A DNA stretch of 53,743 bases from NCBI GenBank assembly GCA_020348445.1, contig CP070751.1:2860309-2914051 (forward strand), given 5' to 3'. Below, piece by piece: positions 48-42,016 of this stretch (positions within the stretch are counted from its first letter, which is position 1; the number at the start of each line of letters is the position of its first letter). A program made the translations under genes and the position numbers. The stretch comes from Thermoplasmata archaeon (lineage in GTDB: Archaea; Thermoplasmatota; Thermoplasmata; GCA-020350865). The notes below the pieces were generated by a model. That model was not told the DNA's origin and did no database searches. It saw nothing but the letters and a program-made list of their open reading frames with translations.

Positions 48-497
48 TTAAACAGCAAACCTACCCAGGCCAGTTTGTATCGGTTTAGCAAAGATACCGC
101 CAGATTGTGATTCTGTGATATAGAATTCAATTTTATCGGATGTGACTTCACCGACACTGCGGAAGAACTTCCCCCTGCTCCAGAGATGTCCACCCCACAG
201 CTGTTTTTTCAGGCTAGGGAATCTCCAGAACAGTTTCCGTGCAGAGATTCCCTTGAACAACTGGAATGTTCGAGAAAGGGAATGTGTGGGGTGCATCTCT
301 AAAAACAGATGCACGTGGTCTTCCATGATTTCCAGTGCAAGGATCGTATACCCGTACTGGTCTGCAATCTCATGGAATATCAATCTGCATCCCCTTGCTA
401 CATGGATATCTTTAAATATTTTCCTTCTATACTTAGGCACCAGAACTATATGATAGTTCGACTCTCCATACGCATGGCTAAAGCTTCTTAAACTCAT
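48..497 (-). CDS. tnpA: IS200/IS605-family Y1 transposase TnpA
   Basis: YHIVLVPKYRR, HUH motif DHVHLF, FKGISAR, LWGGHLWSRGKFFRSVG and catalytic Tyr helix (IEFYI). Confidence 0.95.
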   Translation of the reverse strand: MSLRSFSHAYGESNYHIVLVPKYRRKIFKDIHVARGCRLIFHEIADQYGYTILALEIMEDHVHLFLEMHPTHSLSRTFQLFKGISARKLFWRFPSLKKQLWGGHLWSRGKFFRSVGEVTSDKIEFYITESQSGGIFAKPIQTGLGRFAV

Positions 498-37165: not shown

Positions 37166-37465
37166 GTGAGTGAGCATAAAACAGTTCAAATTAAACATGC
37201 ATTAGCACTTTTCTTAGTTCTTCTTATAATTGGTCTTTCATTATTACTTGGATTCAATCATGACCCAGATACAGGAGCAGTCACTATCAATCCCACGTTT
37301 ATTATATATGGGATTCTTGGTGCAATTTTAATATATATAGCTTTGACTTTTAAGGGATTCAGGGTAAATTTTCCAGTAAGAATGAGGTTCTGTGTTAGTT
37401 GTGGGAGGAACATCCCTTTTGATGCTGTTATCTGTCCATATTGCAGGCATGATTATGAAAAATAA
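37166..37465 (+). CDS. Small membrane protein with double Zn-ribbon
   Basis: Two TMs then CVSCGRNIPFDAVICPYC. Confidence 0.75.
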   Translation: MSEHKTVQIKHALALFLVLLIIGLSLLLGFNHDPDTGAVTINPTFIIYGILGAILIYIALTFKGFRVNFPVRMRFCVSCGRNIPFDAVICPYCRHDYEK

Positions 37466-37612
37466 TGTCTTCGAAAATCCCTTTTGATATGATATTGAAG
37501 AGGAGTGCATTTAAGAATATCGAAACCAAGATGAGGTAAATAAATCTCCTACTTATTTTCAATACCCAATCAAAAAGTCAATTATAACCCCGTTTCTACC
37601 ATTTAAATACAT

Positions 37613-37666
37613 GGTTCTGTTCCAGACTCGGTTGGTGAGGGGGGCTGTTCCATAGCGGTTGGTGAA
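37613..37666 (+). repeat. Left end: TIR plus second CTGTTCCA-N4/5-GGTTG copy
   Basis: CTGTTCCA-GACTC-GGTTGGTGA (37617-37638) and CTGTTCCA-TAGC-GGTTGGTGA (37646-37666). Confidence 0.85.
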
Positions 37667-37683
37667 AGGGCTTTTAAGGATTT

Positions 37684-38502
37684 TTATAATTTTGTAAATT
37701 GAGAAGAGTAATATTGAATTGTTGAAAAAGATAAAAATAGTATGTACCCTGCATCCTCTCTTGTAATATCATATCCTTCATGTGCCCCAGTATGTAGTAA
37801 ATTATAGATTTTATGTTGCAATTCATCAATTCTTTCACTCTTTTTTGGTTTTTCTTTTTGACCAGGAGAATTGTAATCTATTTTTTCTATTATTTCAGGT
37901 TTCAATGCAATAGCTTCACGTAAACTTTCAAAAGCCTCTCTACATTTTACTACGGTAGGTTTATTATTACCTTCATTAAATAGTTGTTGAGCCTCCCTTA
38001 ATCTTGATATTGCTGATGAAAGAGATGGTATTTCATGGACTTTAGGTCTTAATATCTCAAATATAGCATAATCGAAATAACCCAATTCGGATGCTATATT
38101 CAACCATTCTCTTTCTGATAATTTAAAAGCTTGGTGAACATAGGCGGTACTATTGCTAATATTCCCTATATTAAACTCATTTGTATGAACAAAATGTAAT
38201 GTTTGAATCTCTACATTGACAGGGACATCTCCCCCCATTCTCACCTTCTCAATTTCTCTAAATAAATATGGATTTATAAAAAACTCTTCATGATATTCAA
38301 TTGATGCTCCCTGTTCTAATTCACGTGTATCCAATCGAATTCTGTCACCTATCATAATATTACATAGTCTGACTTTTGTTGTATAACCCATCATTTTTAG
38401 GTTATTTCTTTTATCTTGTGTAATTTGTAAATGTACTCCAATAACAGGACCAGGGGATGGGCTTCTTTTTTCTACTAAAACATTTTTAATTAAACCTTGC
38501 AT
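37684..38502 (-). CDS. Transposon cargo: hypothetical protein with possible HEPN/Abi-like C-terminal helical domain
   Basis: C-terminal AISRLREAQQLF...KCREAFE...LLHTGAHEGYDITREDA resembles HEPN-like bundles; no clean Rx4-6H. Confidence 0.5.
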   Translation of the reverse strand: MQGLIKNVLVEKRSPSPGPVIGVHLQITQDKRNNLKMMGYTTKVRLCNIMIGDRIRLDTRELEQGASIEYHEEFFINPYLFREIEKVRMGGDVPVNVEIQTLHFVHTNEFNIGNISNSTAYVHQAFKLSEREWLNIASELGYFDYAIFEILRPKVHEIPSLSSAISRLREAQQLFNEGNNKPTVVKCREAFESLREAIALKPEIIEKIDYNSPGQKEKPKKSERIDELQHKIYNLLHTGAHEGYDITREDAGYILFLSFSTIQYYSSQFTKL

Positions 38503-38595
38503 CTAAATTCCTCCATATAGTAAACCTCTAAAGAATATTTAATCCTTTTCTTCTTGAACTTAAAACAGTAAAAGAGATTATTGATGAGATATGAA

Positions 38596-39522
38596 TTATT
38601 TTTTCTTCTTTCTCTTTTTCCTAATCTTATCACATTTGGTGCAAAAATGTCTCTCTATTTGAGGAACCCATATTAAAATATTTTTGCATTGAGGGCATTT
38701 ACTTATATGTTCCCCCAATGGTGTTATTTCTATATCTTGAAGTTTCAATCCGAAATATCCTGGAATAATACCATATCCTTGTATCATTTCTCCTTTTCCT
38801 TCTTCTAGCATGTTTATATCAAAAAAACTAAGAATGGTTTCAGACCTATGTTCTAACGATACTAAATTTTTATGAGCTAAGTAAGCACCATTGATTATAT
38901 CCCCAACGATAATGCTATTTAAGAATGATGAAAAAATGAGTGATCTAACGGCCTCCATGTCCTCCTCTTTAATACCTCTTTTCCTTTCTAAAAATGAATC
39001 GACAACAGAAATATTTCCAAATAATACCCAACGGAGAGTGCTAGGAAACCCATTAAAAATTAATGGTAATCCATTTTTTTCAGTTTCGGATAACTTAATT
39101 TTAATATGATTTTTAATAATCCAGTCTATGATTTTCTCATAATTTAACATTCTGAAGGTAAAACCAGACTTTATAAATTTCAATCTGATTTTTTTGTCAT
39201 CATTGTTTAAATGCGGTCTTGCAATTTCAATAAACCATTCTGGTTTCATATCATAATTCAAGGTATAACAATCACGTGGTTTAGAACCGCCTTTTTCTCT
39301 TTTTTTTATTAATTCTGCGGGGCAATCATGTCTAATTAAAATCTTTTTATTTTCTAATTCGTCTACATATTTTTGAATCCCACTAATATCTTTACCTATT
39401 TTTCCATTCTTTCGTCTAATATTCTTACTAATGTTTGAAATCCAATCCATTTTATTATTATTTTCTATAAAATAATCTATTATATCCCTTTCTCCACTTC
39501 CTATTTTAAACTCTGTAGACAT
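38596..39522 (-). CDS. Transposon cargo: putative wHTH regulator with C-terminal Zn ribbon
   Basis: N-terminal helix-turn-helix-wing pattern (SGIQKYVDELENKKILIR); C-terminal CPQC..LIWVPQIERHFCTKC and basic tail. Confidence 0.55.
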   Translation of the reverse strand: MSTEFKIGSGERDIIDYFIENNNKMDWISNISKNIRRKNGKIGKDISGIQKYVDELENKKILIRHDCPAELIKKREKGGSKPRDCYTLNYDMKPEWFIEIARPHLNNDDKKIRLKFIKSGFTFRMLNYEKIIDWIIKNHIKIKLSETEKNGLPLIFNGFPSTLRWVLFGNISVVDSFLERKRGIKEEDMEAVRSLIFSSFLNSIIVGDIINGAYLAHKNLVSLEHRSETILSFFDINMLEEGKGEMIQGYGIIPGYFGLKLQDIEITPLGEHISKCPQCKNILIWVPQIERHFCTKCDKIRKKRKKKK

Positions 39523-39561
39523 TATTTGCTGTATAAAACAGCTTATTTAAAACTGTATCGG

Positions 39562-39666
39562 TTACTTGAATTTTGCATACTTGAAATTCAATTAATTGAA
39601 AATCCATTAACTGAAATTCCACTAATAGAATATCAACTTATTGAAACTCAGATATTTGAATGTCCA
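39562..39666 (+). repeat. Seven-copy 15-bp tandem array with invariant GAA
   Basis: (T/C)(T/A)GAA cores start at 39566, 39581, 39596, 39611, 39626, 39641 and 39656. Confidence 0.8.
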
Positions 39667-39718
39667 GCATGTCATTTTTATTGATGATATAAACGCAATC
39701 ACAACCATATACCTTAGT

Positions 39719-39804
39719 GAGGTCGTAACAAAGCGGTCAACCGTGGTGGATTGAAAATCCATTTCCGCAGGGATTCATGGGTTCGAATCCCGTCGACCTC
39801 ACCA
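39719..39804 (+). tRNA. Atypical class II (long variable arm) tRNA, anticodon GAA, CCA encoded
   Basis: Acceptor GAGGTCG/CGACCTC-A-CCA, anticodon arm GTGGA-TTGAAAA-TCCAT, 14-nt variable region with TCC-GCAG-GGA stem, T arm ATGGG-TTCGAAT-CCCGT; D stem weak. Confidence 0.8.
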
Positions 39805-39959
39805 AGGGTCGATTTAATGTCTACAGATAATACTAGATATGTTCAAACAACTATTTTACGTTTATCCCATATCCAATTTAAAAATACACCCATTATAAAT
39901 AAATTTGATAGATTGAAAGCTGATTATTATGATCGCCATATTGAACAATTAACCCTCGA

Positions 39960-40145
39960 TTATTTCTTAGCTTTAGAAGGCTCTACAACCAGCTTTAAAG
40001 ACCCCCCAACAGCCTCCAATTTCCAATATAAAGAATCTCCCGCTTTTAGTCCAAATTGCTCTACAATCCATCGTGGAATGGTGCTACGCAATGATGGGCT
40101 TTTGGATGAAGCTAAAGCCAATACAGTTTTCGTTCCTTCAGGCAT
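39960..40145 (-). CDS. AbrB/MazE/SpoVT-like DNA-binding protein
   Basis: SLRSTIPRWIVEQFGLKAGDSLYW swapped-hairpin signature; divergent from the transposase. Confidence 0.8.
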   Translation of the reverse strand: MPEGTKTVLALASSKSPSLRSTIPRWIVEQFGLKAGDSLYWKLEAVGGSLKLVVEPSKAKK

Positions 40146-40269
40146 TAAATCACCGAATAGAGATATAGATAGAGGGGTATATAAATCTACCTATCCATAT
40201 ACCATAAAGTATATATACCCATATGCCTATATAGGTATTAGAAGTGGTGTATATATAGGTAGAAAGGTG

Positions 40270-41439
40270 ATGAATGTGACAATACAAAATCCAAGACAAT
40301 TACGGGGGTTGGCCATCCTTTCCAGTGGATTGGAGGCTATAAAGCGTGTCTCAGATTATGAATATCAGGTAAAATCACAGCATGGTGACCATTATTATAC
40401 TGTGAAAAATACTAAATTTGGTATAACATGCACATGTCCAAATTGGCAAGAATACCAAACAGATTGTAAACATATTTTTGCAGTTACTTTCTCAATGCAA
40501 CTTCGATTAGAAGTTGAGAAAGAAATAGATACAAATAATATTTTAAAAGCCTCAGAAATAGTTGTATGCCCAGAATGTGAATCTGATAAGGTCATTAAAT
40601 TTGGCAGAAGGAAATGTAAGAAGGGCTACAATCAAAGATATGAATGTAAATCTTGTAACCATACTTTTGTAGTGAATAGAGAACTATCAAGACTCAAAGC
40701 CACCCCTGAAGTTATCTGTGTCTCTATGGATTTGTATTTCAAAGGAGTCTCATTAGCCAAAATAAAACATCACCTAAAATTGTTCTATAACCTAAATGTG
40801 GGGAGAAATACCATCATGCGTTGGATACATAAATTCTCTAAGATTCTAAGTGATTATTCTGAGAAGTATCAGCCCGAAGTAGGTGACCTTTGGCATTCTG
40901 ACGAAATGACAGCAAAGAATAGAGCCAATGGAAAGGGAGTAAGAAACCATGATTGGATTTGGAATTTGATGGATAGTGACACCCGATATCTTTTAGCTTC
41001 TAAAATCACCAAAACCAGAACTCCAGCCAACGCCAGAAAGCCATTAAGAGAGGGTAAGAAAAGGGCAGGAAAAACACCCAAGGCTCTTATTACTGACGGA
41101 CAACAATCTTATAATGAAGCTGTGAAAAAGGAATTTAGGGGTAAAGACTCAACAATCCACTTTCGCACAAGATCAAATAGAAAGCAATTCCTGAATCAGA
41201 ATCTTGAAAGGATGAACGGAACAGTAAGAGAGAGACTTAAGGTTATGAGAGGCTATGACCATAGGGAAACAGGACAGATAATCTTGGATGGTGAAAGATT
41301 CTACTACAACAACATAAGACCACATGAGAGCCTTAAGGGAATGACACCAGGACAGGTTGCAGGACTTCCTCATGTATCTGATGATGATAACCCTTGGCTT
41401 ACTTATATCAAGAAAGCTTTGGAAGAAAAAAATCATTAA
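40270..41439 (+). CDS. IS6-family DDE transposase with N-terminal SWIM finger and Zn ribbon
   Basis: SWIM CTCPNW..DCKHI, CPEC..CKSC, HTH, WHSDE, LITDG..SY, NQNLERMNGTVRER, YYNNIRPH; ATG 40270 follows AGGTG (frame open from 39751). Confidence 0.88.
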   Translation: MNVTIQNPRQLRGLAILSSGLEAIKRVSDYEYQVKSQHGDHYYTVKNTKFGITCTCPNWQEYQTDCKHIFAVTFSMQLRLEVEKEIDTNNILKASEIVVCPECESDKVIKFGRRKCKKGYNQRYECKSCNHTFVVNRELSRLKATPEVICVSMDLYFKGVSLAKIKHHLKLFYNLNVGRNTIMRWIHKFSKILSDYSEKYQPEVGDLWHSDEMTAKNRANGKGVRNHDWIWNLMDSDTRYLLASKITKTRTPANARKPLREGKKRAGKTPKALITDGQQSYNEAVKKEFRGKDSTIHFRTRSNRKQFLNQNLERMNGTVRERLKVMRGYDHRETGQIILDGERFYYNNIRPHESLKGMTPGQVAGLPHVSDDDNPWLTYIKKALEEKNH

Positions 41440-41544
41440 TCATCTTTTTTGTTATTTAGAAGGAATTTCTCTATTCCATTGAGAAACAAAACCATGTAGG
41501 AAATAATTAATATTAATCTAACAATAACCTTAAAGGAGATTAAT

Positions 41545-41742
41545 ATGGTTGAAATTCACTATCCATTAAAAGATTCTCCCTTACCTTTTCTCTTTCTTAT
41601 TTGTGGTGCAATTTTTGTATTTATTTCACTTTTTAGTGTAAATTATATTGATTTTTTAGGGTCTTTGGGACTATGTTTTTTATCATTAATGTTATTATTA
41701 ATAGGTGTAATTTTATCACTTAAAAAAGAAGGAAGGATTTAA
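41545..41742 (+). CDS. Transposon cargo: small two-TM membrane protein
   Basis: GGAG SD, two hydrophobic helices, basic tail. Confidence 0.6.
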   Translation: MVEIHYPLKDSPLPFLFLICGAIFVFISLFSVNYIDFLGSLGLCFLSLMLLLIGVILSLKKEGRI

Positions 41743-41760
41743 TTTATTTTGATTTTGTTT

Positions 41761-41822
41761 ACCAACCGAAATGGAACAGAAACAGCAAAATAAGGCAAAA
41801 CAACCTAACCTGGAACAGAACC
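41761..41822 (-). repeat. Right end: TIR plus second motif copy
   Basis: Minus strand reads CTGTTCCA-GGTTA-GGTTG (outer) and CTGTTCCA-TTTC-GGTTGGT (41761-41779). Confidence 0.85.
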
Positions 41823-42016
41823 AAATACATAAAATTATATATATAATGAAACCGATACCCTATAAAAGATTTACGGGATGCAAAATCAGTGGGATGCACA
41901 GATTCCGATACATGTTGACGATACAGGAGCGGATATACTGGATTTGTATAATTCCGCTTTTCGGAATGTGCCGTCCTTTCATGATTTCCCTTTGATAAAA
42001 ATAGGAGGTCACGAAT

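Follow-up and report, generated by a model that had tools for sequence, protein, structure and literature searches.

A 53,743-nucleotide (nt) stretch of the genome of a Thermoplasmata archaeon (contig CP070751.1, positions 2,860,309 to 2,914,051; hereafter, the window) encodes a tRNA, at 39719 to 39804, that joins a class II body to the GAA anticodon of tRNA-Phe. Comparison of sequences places this tRNA in a small lineage of accessory tRNAs that are carried by archaeal IS6-like cargo transposons and lie beside a winged-helix gene and an array of 15-bp tandem units. Our best reading of this lineage, which we hold tentatively, is that its members are Leu-accepting class II scaffolds whose anticodons have been swapped and which are held in check beside a DNA-binding protein.

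Two class II tRNAs with different anticodons

The gene at 39719 to 39804 is a real tRNA gene. ARAGORN calls it tRNA-Phe(GAA), on the plus strand and the sole tRNA of the window, and Rfam model RF00005 gives positions 39719 to 39801 a score of 48.9 bits (gathering score, 29). In the cloverleaf, the 7-bp acceptor stem is entirely Watson-Crick, the anticodon loop (UUGAAAA) sits on a 5-bp stem, and the T arm is standard (G53-U54-U55-C56, A58, and C61); the conserved and tertiary bases U8, A9, A14, G15, G18-G19, A21, G26, U33, and C48 are all present. The 14-nt variable region folds into a 3-bp stem with a GCAG loop followed by a 3' UUC, and the 3' end consists of the discriminator A73 and an encoded CCA. 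The preliminary description of the gene had listed a near-complete set of universal bases, CCA, A73, and an A12-C23 mismatch, all of which the cloverleaf shows, the mismatch being a genuine one in a 3-bp D stem. The A13/C22 combination also occurs in the tRNA-Leu genes of the host and is therefore not a defect.

The acceptor helix is thermodynamically robust (z = -3.2), and none of 200 shuffles folded equally well. An alternative pairing of the trailer with the 3' acceptor strand had been proposed; the complementarity exists (GGTCGA at 39807 to 39812 with TCGACC), but the pairing is absent from the minimum free energy and centroid folds of the tRNA with its flanks. In the favored fold, the leader instead pairs with ACCAAGG, lengthening the acceptor helix. 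Upstream lies a TATA-like box, GATATAAAC, a candidate archaeal promoter of the tRNA, and there is no oligo-T terminator directly downstream, unlike most host tRNAs.

An exhaustive profile search for homologues of the 308-amino-acid (aa) winged-helix protein encoded next to the tRNA gave a few matches. One of these, on a metagenome contig from ENA (L217), is 46% identical and stands in the same layout as in the window, its gene being accompanied by a tandem array of 15-bp units and by a class II tRNA in divergent orientation. L217 ends in a fragment of an IS6-like DDE transposase, such that both tRNA-bearing elements carry IS6-like transposases. The two tRNAs have the same length up to A73, share a TAGT leader, and are identical at 61 of 83 positions (73%). 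Five of their 23 stem base pairs (2 in the acceptor stem, 2 in the D stem, and 1 in the variable stem) have changed on both sides and still pair, none has changed on one side only, and 95.7% of the cells are paired; slid-register controls gave zero compensatory changes. The presence of five compensatory changes and no one-sided ones indicates that the lineage keeps its fold under selection. These pairs come from the homologue search and covariation analysis that had been recommended as a check on the gene.

Conservation between the two tRNAs is highest in the anticodon arm, where 16 of 17 nucleotides are identical, and the sole difference, at position 35, makes the anticodon GAA in the window and GCA (Cys) in L217. 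The one homologue found thus has neither a GTA nor an NAA anticodon, and the window copy is not a singleton point mutant of a normal Tyr or Leu gene, the outcome that had been named beforehand as refuting the proposal. The L217 tRNA has an oligo-T terminator and no CCA, and its variable arm ends in TCC, not TTC. On the same contig, AACAGAACC, the terminal motif of the window's transposon family, occurs at positions 126 to 134, some 120 nt past the tRNA gene on its 3' side, and may mark the end of a neighboring element.

Host tRNAs, body type, and predicted charging

The host has a single-contig genome of 5.16 Mb, in which many tRNA genes are interrupted by introns and have no encoded CCA. Tandem FtsZ genes, Spt5, and one full-length leucyl-tRNA synthetase (LeuRS) of the archaeal type (1074 bits) are present as well, and these features together mark the host as an archaeon. 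Its tRNA-Leu set is complete (CAA twice, UAA, GAG, CAG, and UAG), its tRNA-Phe(GAA) is a canonical class I tRNA with a short variable loop, G20, G37, and an intron at 37/38, and all of its tRNA-Ser genes have G73. Because the host possesses a full Leu set and a canonical tRNA-Phe, the window tRNA is an extra gene. It is single copy, and an origin as a singleton mutant of a host gene was rejected, there being no similar host tRNA and there being a homologue with another anticodon.

A DNA search of 60 relatives returned partial matches only, all of which were tRNA-Leu genes, and the Leu(UAG) gene of a relative in the same class has a variable arm identical to that of the window tRNA. On a Leu covariance model made from 10 archaeal Leu genes, with the window tRNA left out, the window tRNA scored 74.1 bits and the L217 tRNA 62.4, compared with 80.3 to 103.1 for six host Leu genes; the window tRNA exceeded every host tRNA-Ser (61 at most) and the host tRNA-Phe (40.2). 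A Tyr covariance model was built because A37-A38 and the D-loop length are typical of bacterial tRNA-Tyr. With genes from 7 bacterial phyla and 2 metagenomic genes, this model gave 67.3 bits for the window tRNA, 70.3 for L217, 81 to 102 for true Tyr genes, and 53 to 70 for archaeal Leu genes, and bacterial Tyr genes scored 50 to 68 on the Leu model. Since their scores lie between archaeal Leu and bacterial Tyr, the two bodies are classed by these models as a distinct class II lineage and not as a recent copy of either. This agrees with the initial assignment, a Tyr/Leu-like class II body with a Phe anticodon. A family covariance model built from the two sequences scored the window tRNA at 105 bits; the best matches in 100 relatives (including one unpublished genome, G478, counted only as lacking a family member) reached no more than 77 bits, and the nine inspected were all tRNA-Leu. 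No family member was found in the searches of the 60 and the 100 relatives.

The resemblance to archaeal tRNA-Leu, the nearest cellular matches to the family model, includes A73, U8-A9, a 3-bp D stem with A13/C22, G26, a 13- to 14-nt variable arm, an NNAG loop, and the 3' UUC. The two tRNAs depart from it in their anticodons, neither of which is a Leu anticodon, in having A37 and not G37, in lower Leu scores (74 and 62 versus 80 to 103), in a D loop that is 2 nt shorter, and in an unrelated acceptor stem, which in the window tRNA differs from cellular Leu at most positions. With bacterial tRNA-Tyr, they have in common G1-C72, A73, the D-arm architecture and loop length (AGYGG..AA), G34, A36-A37-A38, and, in the window copy, the encoded CCA; they differ in having A or C at position 35 in place of U, a 4-nt NNAG variable loop in place of the usual 3 nt, and a score of 67 to 70 versus 81 to 102.

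In H. volcanii, the identity of tRNA-Leu resides in A73 together with A47c, G47d, and U47h of the long arm, and the anticodon is no part of it; unmodified transcripts are fully active with LeuRS, and G73, a strong determinant for seryl-tRNA synthetase, is an antideterminant that blocks LeuRS (PMC9976931). When the 14-nt variable region is numbered, all four determinants are found in both the window and the L217 tRNAs, while 47a and 47b vary and pair 45-47g covaries. Because the window tRNA carries the full set read by this archaeal LeuRS, charging with Leu regardless of the anticodon is a fair prediction, and the earlier statement that archaeal LeuRS reads the long arm and A73 rather than the anticodon accords with the published determinants. 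That A73 and the Leu arm determinants are kept while the anticodon changes makes a single anticodon-blind LeuRS charging both tRNAs the simplest account.

For other amino acids, Ser identity involves G73 with a long arm, Cys identity involves U73 and GCA, and archaeal Tyr identity involves C1-G72 (PMC9976931). Neither tRNA has G73, U73, or C1-G72: the window tRNA has A73, and L217 combines GCA with A73. Class II body, G1-C72, A73, and G34 are those of a bacterial tRNA-Tyr, but U35 is replaced by A (C in L217). Insertion of Tyr, which had been suggested as an option, is unlikely in an archaeal host, because archaeal tyrosyl-tRNA synthetase needs C1-G72 and U35 (PMC9976931) and would not accept the G1-C72 of the bacterial type. 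A Leu anticodon (NAG or YAA) with G37 is likewise missing, the window tRNA having GAA with A37.

The anticodon of the window tRNA agrees with an alternative role as a supplementary tRNA-Phe, charged by phenylalanyl-tRNA synthetase (PheRS) through G34-A35-A36 and A73 and decoding UUY correctly, either as a spare for an AT-rich element or as a tRNA whose loop (U32, A37, and A38) resists a nuclease. All four universal Phe determinants are present, and a yeast tRNA-Tyr with a GAA anticodon is mischarged by PheRS (PMC9976931). The proteins of the element need Phe at UUY, the element is TTT-rich (39 of its 49 Phe codons are TTT), and the anticodon loop is unlike that of the host tRNA-Phe at positions 32 and 37. 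Cognate charging, however, fits only one member of the lineage, as the sister has GCA with A73 where cysteinyl-tRNA synthetase needs U73, and it leaves the A73 and Leu-type arm conserved in both unexplained. Nor is the body that of a class I tRNA-Phe, given its 14-nt variable arm, A37 instead of G37, and U20 instead of G20, the last being a Phe determinant in A. pernix and yeast (PMC9976931). Supply of Phe codons is a weak candidate for a role, since Phe usage (45 per 1,000 codons versus 37 in the host) is barely elevated and the enriched codon is UUA, which is four times as frequent in the element. No nuclease-like or defense family was found among the cargo genes, and the proposal of a decoy or backup against anticodon nucleases gains no support from the neighboring genes: the DUF4145-like gene of the element, the candidate tried for such a link, has no defense-family match, and its three homologues lie on contigs without a tRNA. 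We consider it unlikely that the gene is a spare tRNA-Phe.

The transposon, the winged-helix gene, and the array

The tRNA had been described as mobile and foreign, and the gene does lie inside a transposon with defined ends (Table 1). A genome of the same genus (G003) represents the empty site, in which the flanks are contiguous around a single AAATATAT; together with the ends, at AAATACAT/GGTTCTGTTCCAG on the left and CTGGAACAGAACC/AAATACAT on the right, this defines the element. The terminal inverted repeats are perfect over 13 bp and the target-site duplication spans 8 bp, and, with both intact, the insertion looks recent. The tRNA sits in a patch of about 30% GC bracketed by nested inverted repeats.

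Table 1. Features of the tRNA-bearing transposon (window coordinates)
Feature	Position	Strand	Remarks
IS6-like cargo transposon, 4210 bp, holding the tRNA	37613..41822		Nested inverted repeats, ends, empty site in G003, low-GC patch
Target-site duplication AAATACAT, left copy	37605..37612
Left terminal inverted repeat	37613..37634	+	Starts GGTTCTGTTCCAG
272-aa cargo protein	37684..38502	-	Weak DUF4145 match; unique to this transposon copy
Winged-helix protein with C-terminal zinc ribbon, 308 aa	38596..39522	-	Divergent from the tRNA; constant partner of the array
Perfect 13-bp inverted repeat	39512..39524 and 39815..39827		Flanks array and tRNA
Seven 15-bp tandem units, core TTGAAA	39564..39668		Operator- or iteron-like; between winged-helix gene and tRNA
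TATA-like box GATATAAAC, candidate archaeal promoter	39686..39694	+	About 25 to 33 nt 5' of the tRNA; read from sequence against host tRNA upstream regions
Class II tRNA gene, anticodon GAA, A73, encoded CCA, 14-nt variable arm	39719..39804	+	ARAGORN; Rfam, 48.9 bits; family model, 105 bits; homologue on L217
AbrB/SpoVT-like open reading frame (ORF), 61 aa	39960..40145	-	Conserved, like the transposase, in every related element
DDE transposase core, 387 aa as annotated	40276..41439	+	Frame open from 39817; best NCBIfam match IS6
Predicted membrane ORF, 65 aa	41545..41742	+	Within the transposon
Right terminal inverted repeat	41801..41822	-	Ends CTGGAACAGAACC
Target-site duplication AAATACAT, right copy	41823..41830

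Among the several insertion sequence (IS) families that the transposase matched, IS6 was best (NF033587, 94 bits), under the 125-bit equivalog cutoff. The element resembles IS6-family insertion sequences in a DDE transposase with IS6 as its best family match, in ends starting with GG, and in its 8-bp target duplication. It differs in that the transposase scores below the cutoff, has an extra zinc-ribbon/SWIM region, and is accompanied by a conserved AbrB-like partner, and in that its one pair of ends encloses a tRNA and several passenger genes over a length of 4.2 kb. Only this copy of the element has the tRNA, the 15-bp array, and the genes for the DUF4145-like and 308-aa winged-helix proteins; its similarity to related elements starts only near 39882. 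The idea that the tRNA is a conserved part of the transposon family was rejected on account of this late onset of homology and because a tRNA is missing from all of the closest transposase relatives.

Whereas the tRNA is present in two of four loci, the array and the winged-helix gene are constant in all four, with related 15-bp arrays lying 5' of every winged-helix homologue with available DNA (L217, L219, and L229); in L219 and L229, the array is present, but the place of the tRNA is taken by an IS-like gene. The two closest homologues of the winged-helix protein are encoded on Logan contigs: P0126 (SRR14699980), which is 77% identical and whose gene has a 271-bp gap on its upstream side, and P0127 (SRR22387873). 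The fold model of the 308-aa protein is of moderate confidence (mean predicted local distance difference test score, 59.6), and it had no PDB match at an E value of ≤0.001. The array and the anticodon arm resemble one another, and this resemblance is real: GATTGAAAATCCATT, the DNA of the anticodon arm, agrees with unit 3 in all but 1 of 15 positions and conforms to the consensus of the array, and a shared 14-mer arose in 0 of 2,000 shuffles. ATTGAAAATC is also present in the array of L229, a locus without a tRNA, and the L217 array has no match to the L217 anticodon arm beyond the TTG.AAA core. Copying of the anticodon loop from unit 3 by conversion is unlikely to be the whole story, given that the sister arm is the same except at position 35 and that ATTGAAAATC occurs in a tRNA-less array.

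This resemblance, the conservation of the anticodon arm above all other parts of the tRNA, and the constancy of the array and its partner gene in four of four loci would all be in keeping with a role outside decoding, in which either the tRNA-shaped transcript or its anticodon-arm DNA serves the winged-helix protein and array, for instance as an additional binding site, a processing signal, or a regulatory RNA. Allo-tRNA-like genes near transposon and toxin-antitoxin genes have likewise been proposed to be unused in translation (PMC5389517, PMC7609411). Such a role is improbable in our judgment, since the universal tertiary bases, the 7/5 geometry, A73, and, in the window copy, CCA have been kept, as a translating or aminoacylated tRNA needs; the units of the L217 array match their own anticodon arm at the core only, and the fold of the winged-helix protein gave no functional clue.

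Several further observations concern the element and its site. The 13-bp inverted repeat around the array and tRNA has an ATG in both arms and was not found in related elements. The AbrB-like ORF runs on the strand opposite to what has been taken for an N-terminal extension of the transposase (39817 to 40275, plus strand); the two frames are open and conserved throughout the related elements, and because the AbrB frame is better kept in the more distant ones (53% versus 42%), the long form of the transposase may be an artifact of the overlap. The 40-nt stretch at 38556 to 38595 has copies that are 92 to 100% identical in other elements (G002 contigs, L077, and L079) and looks like the scar of a former cargo gene at the cassette boundary, because in L079 the same stretch makes up the final 13 codons of a gene for a DNA methyltransferase. 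The intergenic site between a zinc-ribbon gene and ftsZ1 (window locus 37459 to 41822) holds other inserts, of 2.5 kb and 0.5 kb, in G002:C41 and G004:C152 (L068 and L067), which contain fragments of a related transposase in the opposite orientation; by these comparisons, the site is either an insertion hot spot or a holder of remnants of older copies.

Rarity, decoding, and relation to known systems

In 401 genomes of the phylum, the window tRNA was the sole match to a structural pattern combining the Leu-type arm with a GAA anticodon, the sensitivity of the pattern being about half (its CAA version found one tRNA-Leu[CAA] in 22 of 41 genomes). Applied to one genome per species, the GAA pattern returned 95 stretches, and those listed were archaeal Leu genes with introns, chance matches, a single decayed Leu pseudogene, and genes for bacterial tRNA-Ser(UGA). 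In archaeal Leu genes, the intron frequently ends in TTGAA/AATCC, and imprecise intron loss could in principle have produced the loop, but the sister copy favors an inherited loop. No relatives of the tRNA were found in phages and plasmids, nor in viral contigs with four DNA patterns, where the partner protein was also missing, nor in JGI metagenomes, for which the pattern demanded a 3' TTC arm and would miss the TCC of L217.

Other unusual tRNAs were seen in these surveys. The decayed tRNA-Leu-like pseudogene (L154, in a contig of a Methanotrichaceae metagenome-assembled genome, CAZRYL010000044.1, approximately 299 to 348, minus strand) has the loop TTGAAGC, with GAA as anticodon, and mismatches in three stems. 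Outside the window, the host has a dense array of about 20 divergent tRNA genes (G000:C1:4640570-4643566), some with CCA and odd stems, which includes a second class I tRNA-Phe(GAA) and looks like a mobile or viral tRNA set. Three host tRNAs look bacterial: a Leu(UAA) with a bacterial-type body (G000:C1:1864505-1864591), an initiator-like tRNA-Met with a C1/A72 mismatch and CCA, whose upstream flank is masked as N (G000:C1:2412747-2412823), and an Arg(CCU) with CCA (G000:C1:1942922-1942999). The host tRNA-Leu(UAG) (G000:C1:4239742-4239856) has its intron in the D loop and not at 37/38; ARAGORN miscalls it as Pro, and it scores 80 bits on the Leu model. In viral contigs (L192:7852-7933, and also L213 and L214), a gene of a phage tRNA array has the Leu anticodon CAA and scores 82 bits on the Tyr model versus 68 on the Leu model, a possible further mismatch of body and anticodon.

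Rarity enters into a further alternative, that the tRNA is at present a functionless passenger of the mobile element, one that has undergone anticodon drift and is beginning to decay. No other intact example turned up in the 401 phylum genomes or the one-genome-per-species scan, the tRNA is missing from two of the four partner loci and from all close transposase relatives, and the L154 pseudogene shows that such anticodons arise in unselected copies. The D-stem mismatch in the window copy, the T-stem mismatch in L217, an A37 that is atypical for archaeal decoders, and the lack of an oligo-T directly after the window tRNA point the same way. We nevertheless assign this alternative a low probability: the copies differ by five compensatory and no one-sided pair changes, the acceptor stem retains seven Watson-Crick pairs despite differing from cellular Leu at most positions, and the insertion is recent in appearance. 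The window copy, with its one D-stem mismatch, may be decaying, as suggested earlier, but the lineage as a whole has kept its fold by compensatory change.

We return to the reading that we tentatively prefer, that of Leu-accepting scaffolds with swapped anticodons. Transcription of the tRNA is assumed, given the TATA-like box at about -30 and the shared TAGT leader. The host LeuRS, presumably blind to the anticodon, would leucylate the window and L217-type tRNAs, and the leucylated tRNAs would be potential missense decoders by which UUY or UGY is read as Leu. Their output would be low or conditional, owing to the winged-helix protein on the array beside the tRNA promoter or to a poor anticodon loop containing A37. 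Nematode nev-tRNAs, class II tRNAs with non-Leu and non-Ser anticodons for which Leu was the only amino acid attached in vitro (Hamashima et al. 2012, PMC3333845), provide a precedent for Leu-charged class II tRNAs with non-Leu anticodons.

A number of observations weigh against this reading. The family is known from two members, and the array and winged-helix gene occur in twice as many loci as the tRNA does. The D arm of the window tRNA follows the plan of the host Leu genes with a loop that is 2 nt too short, its Leu score falls below the range of true Leu genes, and the Tyr model gives L217 a higher score than the Leu model does. Each tRNA has a stem mismatch, A12×C23 in the D stem of the window copy and A50×C64 in the T stem of L217. 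The rules for Leu determinants derive from one haloarchaeon, and PheRS may compete for the window tRNA, which carries the universal Phe determinants G34-A35-A36 and A73. Every UNN-reading host tRNA and every archaeal Leu gene examined has G37, and with A37, decoding by the window tRNA may be poor. Finally, insertion of Leu at UUY or UGY would harm the elements' own proteins, because the transposase contains several invariant Phe residues, and two Cys residues of the L217 partner protein are likewise invariant. None of the 12 Phe codons of the transposase falls at a Leu-conserved column, all being at Phe-conserved or variable ones, and recoding of element genes such that they need Leu at UUY or UGY was not found in either the transposase Phe codons or the L217 partner Cys codons.

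A stronger version, in which the winged-helix protein, the 15-bp operator array, and a Leu-accepting class II tRNA with a middle anticodon base that is exchanged from one element to another make up a three-part cassette that would act as a switchable device causing the host to read UUY or UGY as leucine, and hence as a mobile and repressor-gated source of code ambiguity, is doubtful.

The nev-tRNAs derive from or resemble tRNA-Leu and present several anticodons on one scaffold, as does the lineage described here, but they are eukaryotic nuclear genes not reported on transposons (PMC3333845), whereas the present family, for which charging with Leu is a prediction, is archaeal and lies in DDE transposons beside a DNA-binding protein and an array. 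The allo-tRNAs or irregular tRNAs of soil bacteria likewise have identity elements that disagree with the anticodon and place diverse anticodons on one scaffold, and some adjoin transposon-related or toxin-antitoxin genes or are thought to be unused in translation (Mukai et al. 2017, PMC5389517; PMC7609411). They are bacterial, mostly of Ser identity, and have an 8/4 or 9/3 acceptor/T geometry (PMC5389517), in contrast to the canonical 7-bp acceptor and 5-bp T stems, A73, and archaeal Leu determinant set of the present family. Literature searches found no published archaeal case of a tRNA with mismatched body and anticodon, nor of one on a defined transposon.

Natural tRNAs with discordant body and anticodon are raw material for codon reassignment and deliberate mistranslation, and few are documented apart from the nev-tRNAs and allo-tRNAs. 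Here, the same scaffold occurs on two mobile elements with two anticodons, with its fold kept and its Leu determinant set retained. If these tRNAs are unused in translation, their conserved association with a DNA-binding protein and with an array whose units look like the anticodon arm suggests that a transposon has a regulatory component in the shape of a tRNA, itself a novelty. If they are expressed and leucylated, transposons could carry ready-made missense decoders between archaeal genomes, and how cells tolerate and evolve through ambiguous decoding could be tested directly, a single tRNA, synthetase, and reporter being enough.

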